From NCBI GenBank assembly GCA_963729605.1, contig CAVSNY010000003.1:256001-320000 (forward strand): 64,000 nt of DNA. Reading direction: 5' to 3'. A model generated the notes under the pieces. That model was not told where the DNA came from, did no database searches, and worked only from the letters and a program-made list of their open reading frames with translations. A program made the position numbers and the translations under genes. Of this stretch, positions 5,474 to 17,744 are shown in pieces (positions within the stretch are counted from its first letter, which is position 1; each line of letters opens with the position of its first letter). Source of the DNA: an uncultured Gammaproteobacteria bacterium. Its GTDB lineage: Bacteria > Pseudomonadota > Gammaproteobacteria > DRLM01.

Positions 5474-6466
5474 ATGTTGTATTTCAAATTACCCTCAAGC
5501 TCTAGATCCCTACAGTTAGTTTCGGTAGTCATGAAGGCTACAACTTTGCTGTTTTTTCCGCTGGGCATTTTTGTGGCGCATGCCGCTTTCGATCTCAATT
5601 GGGCGCGTGACGAAGGAGGTTATGTCAATAACGATGCCCATGTTGCTTGTGACATGAGCTATATCTCGGATAATTGTGGTGGTTTCGGCACCCTGAATGG
5701 CTCTCACGTTGATGGTACCGCGTTTTTCCAGCAGCAATTCGATAATGGGGGTCAAACCTATTTCCATCTCATCGTGGGCGATCATACAAGAGATGCCTTC
5801 GCGCAAGAGGTGATCATCAAGGCAAACGCGGGCAACAATTACTGGGACAATCGCAGCAATAACATCGCGGTGTCGCATACCAGAGCCAACACCAGCGACC
5901 AAACCTTCAGTATGTCGCAACCCTATAGCAGCGATTCGACCCGGACCGGTACGGGCTCCGGCAATCCCAATAGCGTCATCATGCGCCAGGTGATCGACAG
6001 CGGTGAAATCGTGCAAGAATTCTTGAAGGACTCCTTTACCCAAAAACCCAAGATCACCCAAACCATCACCGGTGCCGGGGCGCAAGCGGGCATGGTGAGC
6101 ACGGTGGTCATCGACATGAGCGGGAAGAATTATTCGGACCTGACACCGATTACCGCGGGTTCGTTCACCAACACCCTTACTCTGAGCGGCGCGCTCATCA
6201 ACGGGACCAGCGGCAACTTCAACAACAGCACCGACGCGGATTCCAATTACCTGACCGCGGGCGGCTTCACCTACACAACGGGTTCGGGCACGGGCGGCAG
6301 CGCGGGCAATTACACCTACATGGACGCGGCGGACGACGCGAATCCCATATTCGAGCCTTATAACCTCAACTGGCAAGGTTATTGTAAACCCTCCGAGAAT
6401 CCCAATTGGGGTAACGGCGCTTGCAATGGCGGCGGCAGTGGTGGCGGTGGCGGTTGGGGTTGGTAG
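5474..6466 (+). CDS. Secreted hypothetical protein with a C-terminal GGGSGGGGGWGW tail (paralog 1)
   Basis: 330-aa ORF with AGGGGG RBS, hydrophobic N-terminus ending AHA-A, two Cys pairs and a Gly/Trp tail. Confidence 0.8.
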   Translation: MLYFKLPSSSRSLQLVSVVMKATTLLFFPLGIFVAHAAFDLNWARDEGGYVNNDAHVACDMSYISDNCGGFGTLNGSHVDGTAFFQQQFDNGGQTYFHLIVGDHTRDAFAQEVIIKANAGNNYWDNRSNNIAVSHTRANTSDQTFSMSQPYSSDSTRTGTGSGNPNSVIMRQVIDSGEIVQEFLKDSFTQKPKITQTITGAGAQAGMVSTVVIDMSGKNYSDLTPITAGSFTNTLTLSGALINGTSGNFNNSTDADSNYLTAGGFTYTTGSGTGGSAGNYTYMDAADDANPIFEPYNLNWQGYCKPSENPNWGNGACNGGGSGGGGGWGW

Positions 6467-6563
6467 CGTTTGTCTCTCGGGAATGCTTTAAGGAAGCGTT
6501 GAATCATTCCATCCTGGAATTTTCAGAGCACGAAAAACGCAACATGTCATTTTTGCTTTTCTT

Positions 6564-6599
6564 CATTTTCAATGGCTAACCGCCATTGAAAATGGCGGT
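6564..6599. terminator. Hairpin(s) between convergent genes, probable terminator
   Basis: Perfect 13-bp inverted repeat CATTTTCAATGGC/GCCATTGAAAATG overlapping a 9-bp one, ACCGCCATT/AATGGCGGT. Confidence 0.55.
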
Positions 6600-6623
6600 A
6601 CCTCTGAATAAATAAAAGGTTCC

Positions 6624-8459
6624 TTAATCTAAACCCACCGGTAGCGGAGGCTGTACAAGATCAGGTCTGTTCTTCTGCTCGCTCTTCAGTAGCTGGTGGG
6701 CGCCGATATACAACTCATCCATGGCGGTATTCATGAAACAGCGGAAAGCATCTTCCGGCGTGCATGCGATGGGTTCGCCGCGCACATTGAACGACGTATT
6801 GACGATCACCCCGTAACCGGTCAATTGCTTGAAGCGGGTGATCAAGGCGTGATAGAGCGGATGGGTATCGGCATGCACGGTTTGAACCCGCGCCGAATAA
6901 TCCACATGCGTGACCGCGGGAATATCGGAGCGCGCGATGTTGACCTGATCGAGTCCGCGAATATCGCGTTCGGCATCGGTGCGTTCACGGCGTCGCGAGC
7001 TTTTGACCGGCGCGACCAACAGCATATAGGGACTGTCCACCGCCAAATCGAAATATTCGGCCACGTCTTCGCGCAACACCGAAGGCGCGAACGGGCGAAA
7101 CGACTCGCGGTATTTTATTTTCAGATTCATCACCGATTGGGTGGAGGGTGAGCGCGGGTCGCCTAAAATGCTGCGTGCGCCCAAGGCGCGCGGACCAAAT
7201 TCCATCCGACCTTGAAACCAGCCGATGACCTTGCCGTCGGCGATGGCGCGGGCGGCCTGATCGACCAATTGCGTTTCATCGAGCGCATGGTAATGCGCAC
7301 CGAGACGATCGAGGTCGGCCTTGATTTCTGGGTCGCCGTACGACGGTCCGAGATAGGCGCCATGCATGCCGTCGCGACCGCTGCGTGACGCCCTTTGGCC
7401 TTCGCATTGGAGGTGATAGACTGCCAACGCGGCGCCGACCGCGCCGCCGGCATCACCGGCCGCGGGCTGGATCCACAATCCATCGTATAAACCGCTTTGC
7501 AATAATTTACCGTTGGCCACGCTATTGAGCGCGACGCCGCCCGCCAAACACAGATTCGCCATCCCGTATTCATGGCGGAGGGCGTTTGCCAATTTCAATA
7601 CCACCTCCTCGGTCACCACTTGGATCGAACGGGCCAGGTCCATATCCATTTGCGTGATTTCCGTCTCGGGGCGGCGCGGACCGCGTCCGAATAAGCGATC
7701 GAAATGGCGATTGGTCATGGTGAGACCGGTGCAGTAGTTGAAATAGCGCATGTTCAAACGAAATGAGCCGTCGGCCGCGATCTCGATGAGATGCCGGCGG
7801 ATGAGGTCGGTGTAAACCGGTTCACCGTACGGCGCCAGGCCCATCAGTTTGTATTCGCCGGAGTTGACTTTAAAGCCGGTGAAATAGGTGAAGGCCGAAT
7901 ACAGCAGGCCTAGGGAATGGGGAAAATGGATCTCTCGGATCGGGCGCAGCGTCCGGCCTTTGCCGATCATCACCGAGGTGGTGGTCCATTCACCCACGCC
8001 GTCCATGGTGAGAATCAATGCCTCATCGAACGGCGAGGGATAAAACGCGGAGGCGGCGTGGGAAAGGTGATGTTCCGAGAATAACAACCGTTTTGCGTCA
8101 AAATCCGGGGCGAGGGCCTGCAAGCCGCGGATCAATTCCCGTTTTTGGAAGAGCTTCTCCTTGAGCCACAGCGGCATGGCTTTGACGAAGGAACGGAAGC
8201 CGGCTGGCGCGAAGGCGTGGTAGGTCTCGAGCAGCCGTTCGAATTTGAGGAAGGGTTTTTCGTAAAACACTACCCATTGGATTTCATCGAGGCCGATGCT
8301 GGCTTCGCGCAGGCAGTATTGTATGGACCGTGCGGGAAAACCGGCATCGTGTTTGACGCGAGTGAAGCGCTCCTCTTGCGCCGCGGCGATAACGTCGCCA
8401 TCGCGGATCAGCGCCGCGGCGCTATCGTGGTAATAAGCGGAGAGACCGAGAATCCACAC
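6624..8459 (-). CDS. O-carbamoyltransferase, NodU/CmcH/TobZ (SxtI-like) family
   Basis: YYHDSAAAL..QEERFTRVKHD, EHHLSHAASAF, DGVGEW, GEYKLMGLAPYG, AGGVALN, GPRALGARS, RESFRPFAP and NTSFNVRGEPI motifs. Confidence 0.95.
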   Translation of the reverse strand: MWILGLSAYYHDSAAALIRDGDVIAAAQEERFTRVKHDAGFPARSIQYCLREASIGLDEIQWVVFYEKPFLKFERLLETYHAFAPAGFRSFVKAMPLWLKEKLFQKRELIRGLQALAPDFDAKRLLFSEHHLSHAASAFYPSPFDEALILTMDGVGEWTTTSVMIGKGRTLRPIREIHFPHSLGLLYSAFTYFTGFKVNSGEYKLMGLAPYGEPVYTDLIRRHLIEIAADGSFRLNMRYFNYCTGLTMTNRHFDRLFGRGPRRPETEITQMDMDLARSIQVVTEEVVLKLANALRHEYGMANLCLAGGVALNSVANGKLLQSGLYDGLWIQPAAGDAGGAVGAALAVYHLQCEGQRASRSGRDGMHGAYLGPSYGDPEIKADLDRLGAHYHALDETQLVDQAARAIADGKVIGWFQGRMEFGPRALGARSILGDPRSPSTQSVMNLKIKYRESFRPFAPSVLREDVAEYFDLAVDSPYMLLVAPVKSSRRRERTDAERDIRGLDQVNIARSDIPAVTHVDYSARVQTVHADTHPLYHALITRFKQLTGYGVIVNTSFNVRGEPIACTPEDAFRCFMNTAMDELYIGAHQLLKSEQKNRPDLVQPPLPVGLD

Positions 8460-8460
8460 G

Positions 8461-8610
8461 TCAAAAAACGGTGTAGATGAAGGGGGCGAGGGCGCTGCCT
8501 TGTACGAAGACGATCAGAGCGCCGAGCAGTAACAAGACCATGATGATGGGCAACAGCCAGATTTTTTTTCGGGCACGCATGAAGGCCCATAATTCGCGGA
8601 TAAAATCCAT
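8461..8610 (-). CDS. Small membrane protein, DUF5989/SxtK-like (49 aa, not in ORF track)
   Basis: Manual translation MDFIRELWAFMRARKKIWLLPIIMVLLLLGALIVFVQGSALAPFIYTVF*; TGATG overlap with the upstream gene. Confidence 0.85.
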   Translation of the reverse strand: MDFIRELWAFMRARKKIWLLPIIMVLLLLGALIVFVQGSALAPFIYTVF

Positions 8611-8990
8611 CAGAATTGGTCCTTGAAGGAACTAAAGGTGTTTTCTTCGCGTGAAGTCCAATAACTGGGTGCGGGTCCGGCGCGCAGCTTGAGGGTGTCA
8701 CGGCCGATCATTCTAAATACCAACGCGAGGGGCGTGATCAATAAAAAAAAGGCCAGCGCCAGTAGCAGCCAGGTGTTGAGCGTACCCAGCACATGGCCCA
8801 CCGCCAGCCATACTTTGAGCAGCGGTTTTAGAACGATGGGTGCGGCGAGGGCTAGCACCGCCAAGCCTGCCGCCGCCATCAGCCAGGAATCGGCCGGTGC
8901 TCGGCCATCGAGTGTCGGCCATAGCGCTATCGCCCCGGCGATGCCCGCCAGGATGAGTCCGAATGATCTTTCTTGCCGGTATCCAGCCAT
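8610..8990 (-). CDS. SxtJ-family membrane protein
   Basis: ERSFGL, LKPL..W..GHVLG..N..LL..FFLLITP, GRD.LKL..SYW..F.DQF pattern. Confidence 0.8.
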   Translation of the reverse strand: MAGYRQERSFGLILAGIAGAIALWPTLDGRAPADSWLMAAAGLAVLALAAPIVLKPLLKVWLAVGHVLGTLNTWLLLALAFFLLITPLALVFRMIGRDTLKLRAGPAPSYWTSREENTFSSFKDQF

Positions 8991-9223
8991 TTTAAGTTCA
9001 CTTTGAATAGTTCATCGAGACGGCGTTCGGTTGGCGCTAACGGCAAGCGGCTCCGGGGCGATCCCTCCGTTTTTCTATAACGGGAGAGGGCGCGGCTCGC
9101 TTGAACGAATCCTGACCTACCCGTAAAAATATTATTCCGATCAAATAGAAGTCTACCGTAGAGTTCCGGTACAATGCCAGAATTGGCGCCGGCCTCAATC
9201 CACCACAACGTCGAATTCATGTT

Positions 9224-11110
9224 TTGATCTCCGCTATGCGCAATGTATCTGCCAATCGCAGGAAGCTGCTGCTTTATACCGTAGTGCTGTTTTTTCCGGT
9301 GGCGTTTTTTTTAGTTCTGGAAAGCGGGCTGCGTTATTTTGACTATGGGGAGAATCTGGATTTATTCGTCCCGGCGCCCGCCGGGTTCGCCGATAAAAAC
9401 TTTCTAATGACCAACCCGGAGATCGCCCGGCGTTATTTCTCGTCCCAGTCGTATCGGCCACGCCCGCCGGATGAATATTTCCTCCAAGAGAAGCCTAAGA
9501 ATGGTTATCGGATCTTCGTGCTCGGCGAATCGACGACGGCTGGTTGGCCTTATCCCAATAACGTGATGTTTTCACGGATGCTCAATCAGCGCTTGGCGGA
9601 GGCGTTTCCCGAACGGGACATCGAGGTGGTGAATACCGCCCTCGCCGCGGTGAACAGTTTCACTTTGAATGATTTCATGGATGAGATTCTGGCGCAGCGA
9701 CCCGACGCCATTTTGATATATGCCGGCCACAATGAATTTTATGGCGCGCTGGGCGCCGGTTCCACCGAATCTTTAGGGCGGGTGCGCTGGGTGGTCAAGG
9801 CGTATCTGGCTTTGTTGCGTTTCAAGACCGTGCAGTTATTGCGTGACGTCGTCAATAATTCCAGCGGGTGGATAGCCGGCTTGGTATCGGATAAATCGCC
9901 GCAGGATCCGTACCCCACTTTGATGGGTCGCATGATAGGCGAAGCCAGTATTCCCTACGGCAGCGCAACCTACCAGGTGGCCAAGCGGAATTTTCAGGAA
10001 AATCTGCGGGAGATATTCCGCAAGGCCCAGCGAGCCGGTGTGCGGGTGCTGGCCAGTGATCTGGTGAGCAATGTGCGGGATCACCGGCCGTTTGCCGCGG
10101 TCCATGAAGGCGATGAGCTATCCGCCGATGTGATCTTCGAATGGGCAAAATTGCTCGATAAAGAACAGATGTACGGCATGGCCAGGACGGCTTATTACTG
10201 GGCGAAGGACATGGACGGCCTCCGTTTCCGCGCCTCCGAAGAATTCAACGATGTCATCCATCAGGTGGCGGCCGAGTTTAAAGTGCCGGTGGTACCGATG
10301 AAGTCTTATTTTGAAGCCGTTTCGCCGCAAGGGATCATCGGCGCCAATTTGATGCTGGAACATTTGCATCCCAATAGCGATGGTTATTTGTTGATGAGCG
10401 AAGCCTTTTTTCAGGGAATGCGTCAACATCAATTTATCAGTGCGACGTGGGATGCAAATAAAATCAGGCCTCTTGCTTTCTACGCGCAATATTGGGGCAT
10501 TACTGAACTTGATCGGGCTCTCGGCGCCTTTCGGGTCATGCAGCTGATGGATCATTGGCCGTTTCAGCCGCCTTCATCACCCACGCGTATCTTCGCGGAC
10601 TATCAACCTCAGACCAAGGCGGAAGAACTTGCTTACAGGGTTGCCAAAGAAGAGTTGGACTTTTTTCAGGCGCATGTCGAACTCGCGGCTTATTATTTTC
10701 AGCAGGGACAAAATGAACGGGCATTCGCGGAATATCAAGCGTTGATAAATGCCGTACCTTATGACGCCCATGTTTATCTCAGCGCCGCAAGCGTGTTGCT
10801 GCAACAAAGACAATATGAGCAGGCATTACCTTTGCTTTACGGCTCGCTTACCCTCAAAGACAGCAGTACCGCGAACAAATGGATAGGCCAGATCCATTTA
10901 TATAATAATCGGCCGCAGGAGGCCCTGAAGTTCCTTGAAAAAGCCTTTGCCCTGGAACCGAAAGATACCCAATTGCTTTACAACCTCGCCGGAGCCTATG
11001 GGCTAACCGGCCAGAAGGATAATGGCCGTCGGTTATTCGCGCATTTGGAAAAGCTCGCGCCGGACTTTCCCCGACTGGATCAGCTGAAACAATTATTGAA
11101 TCAACCTTGA
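9224..11110 (+). CDS. Membrane-anchored SGNH/GDSL hydrolase-like protein with C-terminal TPR repeats
   Basis: N-terminal TM helix; SGNH blocks VLGESTT, YAGHNE and EHLHPN; TPR-like helices in the last ~140 aa. Confidence 0.8.
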   Translation: MISAMRNVSANRRKLLLYTVVLFFPVAFFLVLESGLRYFDYGENLDLFVPAPAGFADKNFLMTNPEIARRYFSSQSYRPRPPDEYFLQEKPKNGYRIFVLGESTTAGWPYPNNVMFSRMLNQRLAEAFPERDIEVVNTALAAVNSFTLNDFMDEILAQRPDAILIYAGHNEFYGALGAGSTESLGRVRWVVKAYLALLRFKTVQLLRDVVNNSSGWIAGLVSDKSPQDPYPTLMGRMIGEASIPYGSATYQVAKRNFQENLREIFRKAQRAGVRVLASDLVSNVRDHRPFAAVHEGDELSADVIFEWAKLLDKEQMYGMARTAYYWAKDMDGLRFRASEEFNDVIHQVAAEFKVPVVPMKSYFEAVSPQGIIGANLMLEHLHPNSDGYLLMSEAFFQGMRQHQFISATWDANKIRPLAFYAQYWGITELDRALGAFRVMQLMDHWPFQPPSSPTRIFADYQPQTKAEELAYRVAKEELDFFQAHVELAAYYFQQGQNERAFAEYQALINAVPYDAHVYLSAASVLLQQRQYEQALPLLYGSLTLKDSSTANKWIGQIHLYNNRPQEALKFLEKAFALEPKDTQLLYNLAGAYGLTGQKDNGRRLFAHLEKLAPDFPRLDQLKQLLNQP

Positions 11111-11244
11111 TAAGGACACGAAGTTGCTAACGGACCTTATGTGCGTGTGCCTTAAAGTAAGGCTAGTTGTATTGGAATAGTGGAGACTGTTTCTGTCGCG
11201 GGAGACGGATGTGACCCAAGTTTCGTATTTGGGCTGAGAGTACG

Positions 11245-11300
11245 AACACTTCGTTACCGCCCCCTCCAGTATGATCCGTGGAGGGCGATAACAAAGTATT
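11245..11300 (-). other. Long RNA hairpin in the 3' region of paralog 2
   Basis: 22-bp stem with three G-U pairs and a 2-nt bulge that forms fully only on the minus strand. Confidence 0.5.
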
Positions 11301-11346
11301 TTACAAAGGTGCTGAAAGGATCGTGGCAGTCTGACGTAAAAATTTA

Positions 11347-12435
11347 CTACCAACCCCAGCCGCCGCTGCCACCACCACTACTACCCCCCTGGTATACGGG
11401 CTTGACGCCGAATGGATCGGTCACCCACGTAAACGGTCCGGTGCCGCTAATTGAGCTGGTAGCAATGCGGTTTTTATTATCGCTGCGATTATCATAGGCC
11501 TGAAAACCGAAGCCCGATTGCGCGACCCAGGTAACCTTGACATCGTCGCCCGGCTGCCAAGTGATGGTGCCGCCACTGCCGCTACTGTCGCTGCTGCTTC
11601 TTCCGCCGCTACCGCCAAAACCACTGCTACCGCTGCGGCTGTTGCCGCCGCTCAGGCTGGCGCTGCCCGATTTGGTGAGCATGTCGCCTGCGACTTCCCG
11701 CATGACGAACATGTTCACGCTGCCGCCGCCATTCCAGCCGAAACCACCACCACCCCAGCCACCACCACCACCGCCACTGCCGTTAAATTGAGAACCATTG
11801 ACGGTCTGGCCGATGTCCAATTTAAAGCCGGTACGGTTACCGTTCGCGTCCAGATTGGCTAGATATTTGAAATCACCCACCATATCAACCGTAGAGCTTA
11901 TCGCGGCGCCGCCAAAGTTCTGGGTGATTTCGATATTGGGTTGTCCGGCAACGGCCGCCCAGCCGGTGTTGATCTGCGCGGTCATCAAGAACTTATCGTT
12001 GCCCGTGCCTCTGACTACCTGCGAAACGGATAAACCCGAGGTTTCACCGCTGGTGGTGGTGGTTGCTTCCGATTCGCCGGCGCTGGTGGTCCATTGCGAG
12101 ATAAAGCCGCCTTGTTTGACGAAAGATTCCGAAGCGAAGGCAACCGTCCCCGGCAAGCCGCTGGCATTGGAGTCGGTGAGTATGCTCTGCATATACCGGC
12201 CATTATTATTACCCGTGCCGGCGGTGATCTCTCTCTGCAACAGTCCGGGCGCCGACGTGGGCGTACCGCAGAGCGCACCGGAGGCGCAGGTCGCCGAGAT
12301 GGCGCCATTATTAACCGACCAGCCACCAAACGGTATCGGCGGCCCACCGGTGACGGTACCCGGGACTACCAGGGGAGTGGCGGCAACCAGCCAGAGCGCC
12401 TTATGTGTGAATAAAGATTTATTATGCTTATTCAT
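11347..12435 (-). CDS. Secreted Gly-rich hypothetical protein with a GGSGGWGW tail (paralog 2)
   Basis: Signal peptide, C-x5-C, internal GGGGGGWGGGGFGWNGGG; aligns by eye with 12477-13436. Confidence 0.8.
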   Translation of the reverse strand: MNKHNKSLFTHKALWLVAATPLVVPGTVTGGPPIPFGGWSVNNGAISATCASGALCGTPTSAPGLLQREITAGTGNNNGRYMQSILTDSNASGLPGTVAFASESFVKQGGFISQWTTSAGESEATTTTSGETSGLSVSQVVRGTGNDKFLMTAQINTGWAAVAGQPNIEITQNFGGAAISSTVDMVGDFKYLANLDANGNRTGFKLDIGQTVNGSQFNGSGGGGGGWGGGGFGWNGGGSVNMFVMREVAGDMLTKSGSASLSGGNSRSGSSGFGGSGGRSSSDSSGSGGTITWQPGDDVKVTWVAQSGFGFQAYDNRSDNKNRIATSSISGTGPFTWVTDPFGVKPVYQGGSSGGGSGGWGW

Positions 12436-12476
12436 GGGTTACCTCGAATTGGGTTCCATGTTGCTTAAAAGATTCA

Positions 12477-13436
12477 TTACCAACCACCACGACCACTACC
12501 GCTGCCGCTGCTACTGGCGCCGCCGCTGCCATTTGCCGGCATGGCAGGTGCCGTTCCAAACGGCGGGTTCACCCAAGTGAAGGGCGCGGGATTGGATTCG
12601 GATTGGTTACCGATGGGGGCGATCGTGTCGCTCAGGTTGTCATAATTCTGCCAACTCAGATTGCCACCTGATGCATCGCCTTCGAAGTCGACCCGCTGTC
12701 CGACCCAGACTACCTGGATAACGTCTCCGGCCTTCCAAGTCATTTTCTTGTTGCCGGGCAAGGTAGCCGTGCCGGCCGCCTTAAGCATATCGCCACCGAC
12801 CCGGCGCATTACGAACATTTGATCATCCACCTGTTTGGTGGTGACGGGTTCACTGAAATAAGAACTTAATTCAATCAAGGTGCCGGTTTGTAAACCGTTG
12901 TTGTCGTTGTTACCGGCGATATGGGTTGTATCATTGAATTTTTGCCCGGCACTGGTCGATTCAGTGATTTTTTGAACGATGTCGATGCTTGGCGTGCCTG
13001 GCGTGGCGGCCCAGCCTCGGTTGATTTGAACCGCTGAGTCAAAAATTCGGGTTTGCGCGGTGGTGATGCTTTCACTATGCAGCATCTGTTTGTCGGAAAT
13101 TCCGAAGGAGCTTGGCGCGGTGGTTGTGCCCATTTTGATGAAATTTTCATCCGAAAACGGCAAACCGGTGGCGGGGACGCCCGTTGATGTTGAACCTGTG
13201 ACGATGGTTTGGACGAAGGCTTGGCCGCTTAAGGGATCTTCGACGCGCCGCTGTAAAAAGCCCGGTCCGCTGCTGAGTTCGGAACATTGAAAACCGGTTC
13301 CGCATGTCGCGGCAACCCCGCCATTGCTGACAGACCACTGATCAAACGGTGTGGGCGCACCACCAAAGGCGGATGATGCACATAAAGCTGCCAAGCCCAC
13401 TGGCACCAGCCCAGAGAAATGCAATCGCCAAGTCAT
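12477..13436 (-). CDS. Secreted hypothetical protein with a GSGRGGW tail (paralog 3)
   Basis: Signal peptide, C-x5-C; shares WSVxNG, QINxGWAA, MFVMRxVxGDML, TWxxGD and PFTWVxxPFG with paralog 2. Confidence 0.8.
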   Translation of the reverse strand: MTWRLHFSGLVPVGLAALCASSAFGGAPTPFDQWSVSNGGVAATCGTGFQCSELSSGPGFLQRRVEDPLSGQAFVQTIVTGSTSTGVPATGLPFSDENFIKMGTTTAPSSFGISDKQMLHSESITTAQTRIFDSAVQINRGWAATPGTPSIDIVQKITESTSAGQKFNDTTHIAGNNDNNGLQTGTLIELSSYFSEPVTTKQVDDQMFVMRRVGGDMLKAAGTATLPGNKKMTWKAGDVIQVVWVGQRVDFEGDASGGNLSWQNYDNLSDTIAPIGNQSESNPAPFTWVNPPFGTAPAMPANGSGGASSSGSGSGRGGW

Positions 13437-15499: not shown

Positions 15500-15704
15500 C
15501 GACGAGCCAAGGAGAGCGAAGCGAGGGGGAGGAGCCCGCGGTAGCCGCGATGCGGCGTCAGCCAGCGTGGTAGCCATGACGCGCTGCGTAGTAGCGTGTC
15601 GTGGCGTTTGCCTGGCGTCCGGGGCGAAAGGAATCAACGTCGCGAGACCGAGGTCGATTCGCACACGGAGGTGCGAATCGTTTCCTGAGGGCCGCGACAC
15701 ATCG
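15500..15704 (+). repeat. Structured non-coding repeat, MITE-like (copy 1, 205 bp)
   Basis: Near-identical inverted copy at 31260-31491; several internal hairpins. Confidence 0.85.
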
Positions 15705-15772
15705 GAAGGCCTTAGGCTCTGTTGACATTTTGCCAGTCCGGGTGGGATATAGGCGGAATTTTGAAGGACGCG

Positions 15773-15946
15773 ATGAACAGATCAGTACTTACGGATAAGC
15801 AGTGGGAAATAATACGGGGTTATCTGCGCAATCATCCGCGCGTCTATGTTGGAAATGAAGAGCAGTGTCGGCAGTTTTTGGACGCGGTATTGTGGATACT
15901 CAGAAGTGGCGGACAATGGCGGCTCTTACCCAAAGAGAAAGGCGAT
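15773..15946 (+). pseudogene. IS5-family transposase, N-terminal fragment
   Basis: MNRSVLTDKQWEII..CRQFLDAVLWILRSGGQWRLLPKEKG, after which similarity stops. Confidence 0.8.
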
Positions 15947-16151
15947 AGGCATCCTCTTGCCGTCTGTTTCTTCGCATCCTCCGGTCCGATTGCCGCAGAT
16001 TGCTATCCGCCAATCAGCACCAGCCGCGTATCAAAAAGTGCTTGCTCATCACCCCCTGAACGCACCGCAGGATGGCGACAAGCAACACAACGAGCAGCCC
16101 TTCAACCTGACCGAGAATCCGCCGATGACCACCGCGATTCACGCGCAGCAC

Positions 16152-17641
<1,490 letters not shown>

Positions 17642-17744
17642 GGCGAGACCGCCGCCGGCCCCGGTGCCGTGGCCGCGCCGCCTGTCTGCAGAATCACAGG
17701 CAGGCCGGACCGCCCCAGGGTTGAAGCGAACGTCGGTCATGACT

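Follow-up and report, generated by a model that had tools for sequence, protein, structure and literature searches.

A 64,000-nucleotide stretch of the genome of an uncultured gammaproteobacterium (contig CAVSNY010000003.1; hereafter, the window) contains a cluster in which three genes for likely exported proteins with Gly-rich, Trp-ended C-terminal tails surround the genes of an O-carbamoyltransferase, a DUF5989 membrane microprotein, an SxtJ-family membrane protein, and an SGNH/GDSL protein with tetratricopeptide repeats (TPRs), referred to as SGNH-TPR. The tailed proteins represent two types, designated A and B, and the four enclosed genes are collectively designated the module. We tentatively propose, as a reading that falls a little short of probable, that the tailed A and B proteins form a likely secreted surface coat of open beta-sheets and that the module is a carbamoyl relay modifying these proteins or their glycans outside the cytoplasm. 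Since the tail was found in related bacteria only together with the module, the latter likely decorates the A/B proteins, the likely surface coat, by carbamoyl transfer across the inner membrane.

The SGNH-TPR gene was identified in 6 of the 32 family-positive genomes (L032 and G010 being counted once), and in each of them no more than 3 kb separates it from a W-tailed A gene. None of the 36 A genes analysed in 20 genomes without the SGNH-TPR gene is W-tailed, while nine of them are Gly-rich at the end and have no terminal Trp; this count covers part of the copies, namely A genes with a visible end, with six negative genomes left out and one truncated open reading frame (ORF) dropped. The loci compiled for this comparison yielded a redundant set of 58 A ORFs of at least 250 aa, five short ORFs being left out; 22 are tailed and linked to the module, six are tailed and unlinked, and 27 are neither. 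On a tree of 56 A ORFs (two duplicates dropped), 19 of the 21 members of the clade containing the window protein P0001 (support 0.98) are encoded within 6 kb of module genes, and the other two reside on contigs of 1.2 and 4.7 kb. W-tails occur in this clade, in two further A subclades, and in type B. Wherever the context of a W-tailed B gene is known (four genes, in G000 and G002), the gene flanks the module. A further 28 distinct closed B ORFs (3 fragments) are tail-less, among them close relatives located by aroC in G001, G005, and G002. The G002 genome carries both module-flanking W-tailed B genes and tail-less close relatives at a different site; the remaining module-bearing genomes yielded no tailed B gene.

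The original prediction that homologues co-occur with the module therefore stands for the tailed members, which are linked to it in about four lineages, and fails for the family as a whole, which can do without it (SGNH-TPR in 6 of 32 genomes). A recent chance insertion of the module was considered and dropped after the linkage recurred in further loci.

A search of the six-frame ORFs of at least 150 aa in the genome revealed that 67 of 5,925 end in Trp, and four of these also have at least four Gly among the last ten residues: the three window proteins and one TPM-domain protein (G000:C6:459498-460358) with an unrelated body and the C-terminal end GGGGFGGGGASGRW. Within the family, a strict tail pattern matched 6 of 150 B representatives (the best 150 of 450 type B clusters at 50% identity) and 36 of 66 A matches, and a loose pattern matched 8 and 47, respectively. 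The suggestion that the tail acts as a general C-terminal sorting signal could not be upheld, since most family members have no tail and yet carry the same type of N-terminus. Its absence from most members and the presence of the motif in internal loops indicate that the tail is not needed for export, and a family-wide sorting signal was ruled out by this rarity and by the internal copies. Rather than a sorting signal of general use, the tail is a feature that tracks the module.

The two type B proteins of the window align end to end, as had been noted (31% identity, E 4e-39). The resemblance of P0001 to type B, also proposed earlier, was not significant in pairwise comparison (E 0.17), and homology was revealed by profile comparison: hhalign gave 96.4% (E 1.4e-9, 89 columns) with deeper alignments and 81.7% with a shallow alignment, and the hidden Markov models of A and B each weakly match members of the other type. 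On these sequence comparisons, we are confident that A and B are homologous types of one superfamily of exported proteins. That the family is undescribed was borne out by the lack of matches to characterised families in Pfam (118 B and 66 A members), NCBIfam, and PDB sequences, where a single DnaJ match (E 0.75) was set aside; the best scores in an ESM Atlas search (0.78–0.80) were at chance level. A literature search revealed no paper on A/B or on DUF5989 as a shuttle, with the limit that an unread motif survey (Schultz et al. 2023) may mention carbamoyltransferase-linked microproteins.

Named relatives carry the label of uncultured Gammaproteobacteria. Both types are present in all 12 genomes of the host family, and among 400 gammaproteobacterial genomes drawn evenly across the class (up to five candidates scored per genome, one further genome unscored), A was detected in 21, B in 22, and both in 20, giving 23 positive genomes over nine families. 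The host genome contains three A and five B genes, and the five located outside the window (two A, three B) have no tail. B–B fusions are numerous among proteins longer than 420 aa, and no A–B fusion was found among those examined.

AlphaFold2 predicted all-beta models for both types, confident for B (predicted local distance difference test, pLDDT, 87.9) and fair for A (77.5); the tails are disordered rather than strands in both, and the N-termini are unfolded in the two models built (one A, one B). Foldseek searches against PDB gave no match at E ≤ 1e-3 for either model, and VIA-align found partial matches to large barrels only, with Z up to 11.1 and a root-mean-square deviation (rmsd) of 5.3–16 Å for B (5.3 for LptD and PapC) and Z up to 8.0 for A; such partial outcomes are no proof of a new fold. 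We read the matches of the models to parts of barrels as pointing to an open curved meander. One side of the predicted B strands is conserved and hydrophobic, with a Gln ladder, and the other is polar and variable. A and B alike are rich in Gly, Ser, Thr, Asn, and Asp and poor in Lys; this pattern and composition would suit a protein that is soluble and exported and whose edge strands are free.

Near-identical contigs from RNA libraries extend over the B genes of the window in three runs (two studies) and over the A gene in one; a gene without such cover is not thereby shown to be silent. The deepest contigs belong to a tail-less B paralogue (G000:C7:464551-465456; L074:4552-5457) at a site conserved across the family, flanked by nikR-cbiMQO-type nickel transport genes and by a block of O-methyltransferase, LolA-like, DUF1302, MMPL, barrel, and TPR genes. 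In run X3, contig depth was 392–1404 on this paralogue versus 10–53 on the listed neighbours; runs X2 and X4 followed the same trend, and the probably-DNA run X1 was nearly flat, depth being compared on a stretch not used for choosing the runs. Since contig depth is unable to rank genes, these values are only a hint of a major structural protein. In the part of the Tenderia transcriptome table consulted (PMC5371394, supplement 3), no homologue could be mapped, and the synteny of the nickel locus is not kept. On balance, we lean slightly towards an abundant structural role of A/B at the cell surface.

Within the module, the carbamoyltransferase contains Carbam_trans_N and Carbam_trans_C domains above cut-off (352 and 240 bits) and is not NodU itself (128 bits versus an NCBIfam cut-off of 1000). 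It belongs to an A-linked group with 69–83% identity: ten of the eleven carbamoyltransferases with at least 69% identity have an A gene in the locus, and the eleventh, close to the end of its contig, comes from a genome in which A genes flank SGNH-TPR. The distribution of the enzyme is patchy, with 3 of the 12 host-family genomes encoding it. The SGNH-TPR protein, whose transmembrane (TM) anchor spans residues 15–33, has the Ser, Asn, and His motifs GESTTAG, GHNEFY, and EHLHP and is likely periplasmic. The microprotein of the DUF5989 family, which we take to be SxtK, terminates after its TM helix in FIYTVF; 10 of 12 related loci have FIYTxF, and two have L or V in the first position. This end fits the FxYxxF acyl-shuttle motif of DltX and PatA. 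According to PMC12148441, this motif is located on the microprotein DltX or on PatA, and its Tyr passes the group from the membrane step to the Ser of the SGNH protein; the paper mentions neither 'carbamoyl' nor 'DUF5989'.

From the locus anatomy, the homology, the shuttle motif, and the co-occurrence, we infer the chemistry, its target, and the assembly of a coat as follows. By analogy with the acyl relays, the module appears fairly probable as a carbamoyl relay, and the tailed proteins or their glycans are possible, if somewhat doubtful, targets. The cytoplasmic SxtI-type enzyme would activate carbamoyl phosphate, an activity established for the carbamoyltransferase family, and, together with SxtJ, would charge the Tyr of the FIYTVF end with the group, as in DltX and PatA. 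The membrane-anchored SGNH protein would take the group on its Ser and transfer it to a hydroxyl acceptor. TPRs often bind C-termini, and the TPR domain may bind the disordered Gly...Trp end and so select the tailed paralogues; the A/B proteins would assemble into a surface coat and may form the fibre or sheath suggested at the outset. A bolder version, in which the main surface lattice of undecaheme-bearing, likely electron-uptake gammaproteobacteria consists of a new-fold superfamily and a subset of its subunits is O-carbamoylated in the periplasm by an MBOAT-free Tyr shuttle, the Gly...Trp tag being read by TPRs, is unlikely to hold in full.

Several observations weigh against the proposed relay and coat. 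No MBOAT/AT3 membrane transferase was found in the loci (no genome-wide search for an unlinked MBOAT was made), so the proposal does not account for the passage of the group across the membrane. The acid position of the SGNH protein is Glu (EHLH) instead of the usual Asp, SGNH transferases act on glycans in known relays, and the protein might act as a hydrolase, the role that PMC2679770 suggests for SxtL. The tail is shared with the unrelated TPM protein, 24 of 118 B and 35 of 66 A members have GG[W/F/M]G segments within internal loops as well, 3 of the 58 A ORFs are linked to the module without a W-tail, and two A genes with no tail are also found near it. The A orthologue in G002 is split into two ORFs (L021:16794-17806), with an intact module and two intact B genes alongside, and the RNA contig depth offers no basis for gene ranking. 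Moreover, the linked loci represent about four lineages, about ten loci coming from one of them, and with so few independent lineages the link may in part reflect a common history or joint transfer.

The main rival explanation keeps the relay and changes the acceptor: the module would carbamoylate an envelope polysaccharide (O-antigen, capsule, or exopolysaccharide) and accompany the tailed genes in a cassette for surface properties, in which the tail would be a low-complexity sticker for self-association or glycan binding that the enzymes do not read. A sister carbamoyltransferase clade with 61–63% identity (n = 4, support 1.0) has no A or B gene in about 19 kb, three of its four loci adjoin glycan or pilin genes, and known shuttle–SGNH systems acylate polymers. 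The SxtIJK-type module of this clade (L065, L061, L066, L062) shares the shuttle-like end of DUF5989, lies for the most part in loci for glycans or pilin glycosylation (in L065, SGNH is encoded by separate genes), and is a candidate glycan carbamoylation relay. The polysaccharide target also accords with the GGW, GGF, and GGM segments in loops, with the GGM tails of module-less genomes (9 of 36 A genes being Gly-rich at the end without terminal Trp), and with the GC content of the region, which is lower (0.548) than that of the genome (about 0.61). However, among the neighbours in the A-linked loci listed, most of these neighbours being judged from sequence rather than by family scans, none was recognised as a glycosyltransferase or polysaccharide export gene; the SGNH protein here carries TPRs, and the terminal Trp, found in several subclades, is confined to cases with the SGNH-TPR gene. 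We regard the polysaccharide target as unlikely, yet as the strongest competitor.

Historical linkage would dispense with a functional connection: one ancestral block of A and the module was inherited or transferred, nearby paralogues acquired tails by local recombination, and the module acts on an unrelated small molecule. One A clade and one carbamoyltransferase group make up most linked loci, the module is patchy, and Gly-rich DNA recombines easily. This scenario appears improbable, given that adjacency persists at 69–83% enzyme identity despite differences in gene order between lineages and that W-tailed A genes also occur far from the module within a module-bearing genome (L070, G302). 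Least probable of all is the view that A/B are subunits of outer-membrane barrels, forming oligomeric pores, perhaps for an undecaheme electron conduit, with the aromatic C-terminus as a BAM-type signal: the B model is structurally closest to portions of large barrels and all 23 A/B-positive genomes match an 11-heme cytochrome, but the fits are partial and Foldseek found no match at E ≤ 1e-3, the hydrophobic face bears conserved Gln/Ser opposite a polar face, as fits a soluble sheet, the tails are not strands, and 26 of the 49 undecaheme-positive genomes have no A/B.

The undecaheme matches, some of them partial, were found in 49 of the 400 genomes, and we read their overlap with A/B as following kinship, not as proof of joint function. 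The host genome encodes an 895-aa, UetJ-like cytochrome with 11 CxxCH motifs (G000:C6:434900-437587); undecaheme UetJ has been described in Tenderiales and neighbouring orders in the part of 10.1101/2022.05.06.490989 consulted.

The features of the locus are listed in Table 1. The lengths, tails, and inward orientation of the three tailed ORFs proved as originally described, and Pfam identified the SxtI/J/K-like and SGNH-TPR genes between them. The early Cys pairs are C59/C68 in P0001, C50/C56 in P0002, and C45/C51 in P0003, and P0001 has a second pair, C304/C317. The N-termini are hydrophobic and resemble signal peptides, as predicted (KD 1.93, 1.21, and 1.57 for P0001, P0002, and P0003, respectively). 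Scans for promoters (4 sites versus 6.3 expected) and terminators (16 versus 10.4 ± 3.5 expected) were uninformative. At window positions 15500–17700, the GC content steps from about 0.54 to 0.70 over transposase-like and thymidylate-synthase-like fragments and a frame-split bioA-like gene, names judged from translations only.

Table 1. Predicted features of the cluster in window coordinates.
Feature	Position	Strand	Characteristics
P0001, type A, 330 aa	5474..6466	+	signal-peptide-like N-terminus, two Cys pairs, predicted beta-meander, disordered GGGGGWGW tail
P0001, alternative start	ATG 5531	+	possible true start of the type A protein
NodU/CmcH/SxtI-type O-carbamoyltransferase, 611 aa	6624..8459	-	motifs HHLSHA, DGVGE, GDAG; no TM segment; Pfam
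DUF5989 (SxtK-like) membrane microprotein, 49 aa	8461..8610	-	one TM helix, C-terminus FIYTVF; Pfam
SxtJ-family membrane protein, 126 aa	8610..8990	-	2-3 hydrophobic (TM) segments; stop codon overlaps DUF5989 start; Pfam
SGNH/GDSL protein with C-terminal TPRs, 628 aa	9224..11110	+	one N-terminal TM anchor; GESTTAG, GHNEFY, LEHLHP; Pfam
P0002, type B, 362 aa	11347..12435	-	internal GGGGWGGGGFGW loop insert; GGSGGWGW tail
P0003, type B, 319 aa	12477..13436	-	predicted all-beta open curved sheet (pLDDT 87.9); disordered GSGRGGW tail

Tail-less paralogues often adjoin CTERM-type or Ig/Fn3 surface-protein genes, or the LolA-like/DUF1302/MMPL block. B–B fusions of about 680 aa (L023:14322-16373, L028:8565-10583) are encoded next to large Fn3/Ig surface proteins, with CTERM-like genes nearby. 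A-type genes without the W-tail recur by metG/apbC/dcd-like genes in several families (G000:C4:74701-75705; L033, L060, L069, L071), and this is probably an ancestral copy. Four tandem A copies with GGM-rich tails were found in G233, and a GGM-tailed A gene of G058 (L064:18446-19420) directly adjoins a flagellin-like gene. Long TPR proteins with C-terminal barrel-like parts are encoded near tail-less B genes (L073:12352-14940, L074:13477-16239). Export of B paralogues by a Slam/type XI system is a lead only, SlipAM matching one TPR protein below the cut-off (E 0.026).

These results name a large unannotated superfamily that marks a clade of uncultured, undecaheme-bearing gammaproteobacteria; A/B may rank among the most abundant surface proteins of this clade, where the cells would touch minerals or electrodes. 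If the proposed relay is correct, it would extend the recently solved acyl-shuttle chemistry to carbamoyl groups without an MBOAT and provide a testable role for DUF5989/SxtK and SxtJ. In the bolder version, it would represent a tag-directed protein carbamoylation pathway and give these orphan families a function.

Like the PEP-CTERM and GlyGly-CTERM signals, the window tail is a short C-terminal segment common to otherwise distant secreted proteins, but it has no C-terminal hydrophobic segment and no NCBIfam match, in line with the initial observation that the TM/basic segment of these signals is missing, and it is absent from most members and also occurs internally. The tail of the TPM-domain (YgcG-like) protein of the host genome is similar, on an unrelated body; Gly-rich Trp-ended tails may be common in TPM proteins. 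A/B share with S-layer, sheath, curli, and Fap proteins a probable export signal, an acidic composition rich in Gly, Ser, Thr, Asn, and Asp, a Gln ladder within beta structure, several paralogues, fusions of tandem domains, and an apparently high transcript level (a hint only). They differ in having no sequence or fold match and in being predicted as an antiparallel meander rather than a beta-solenoid; no curlin or Fap repeat was matched by Pfam in the 118 B and 66 A members, and the B model is a long-strand meander.

The sxtI-sxtJ-sxtK-sxtL block of the cyanobacterial saxitoxin cluster, as described in the parts of PMC2679770 and PMC2684587 consulted, likewise combines an O-carbamoyltransferase, SxtJ, a small SxtK-like protein, and a GDSL/SGNH protein; there, SxtJ and SxtK are listed without known function, and SxtL is proposed to be a decarbamoylase. 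In contrast, the neighbours scanned in the window include no further recognisable gene of saxitoxin type, and the window SGNH protein is divergent and carries TPRs. The DltABCDX and PatAB systems, as far as described in the part of PMC12148441 consulted, resemble the window in encoding a single-TM microprotein ending in FxYxxF and a membrane-anchored SGNH protein together with a cytoplasmic activating enzyme. The window module differs in that it has no MBOAT gene, SxtJ being the sole other membrane protein, its activator is a NodU/CmcH carbamoyltransferase, its SGNH protein has TPRs, and, as proposed, a protein or the glycan it bears takes the place of teichoic acid or peptidoglycan as acceptor. 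The cluster is a recurrent system outside every family checked, which likely works like the Dlt and Pat relays and is coupled to an unannotated superfamily.

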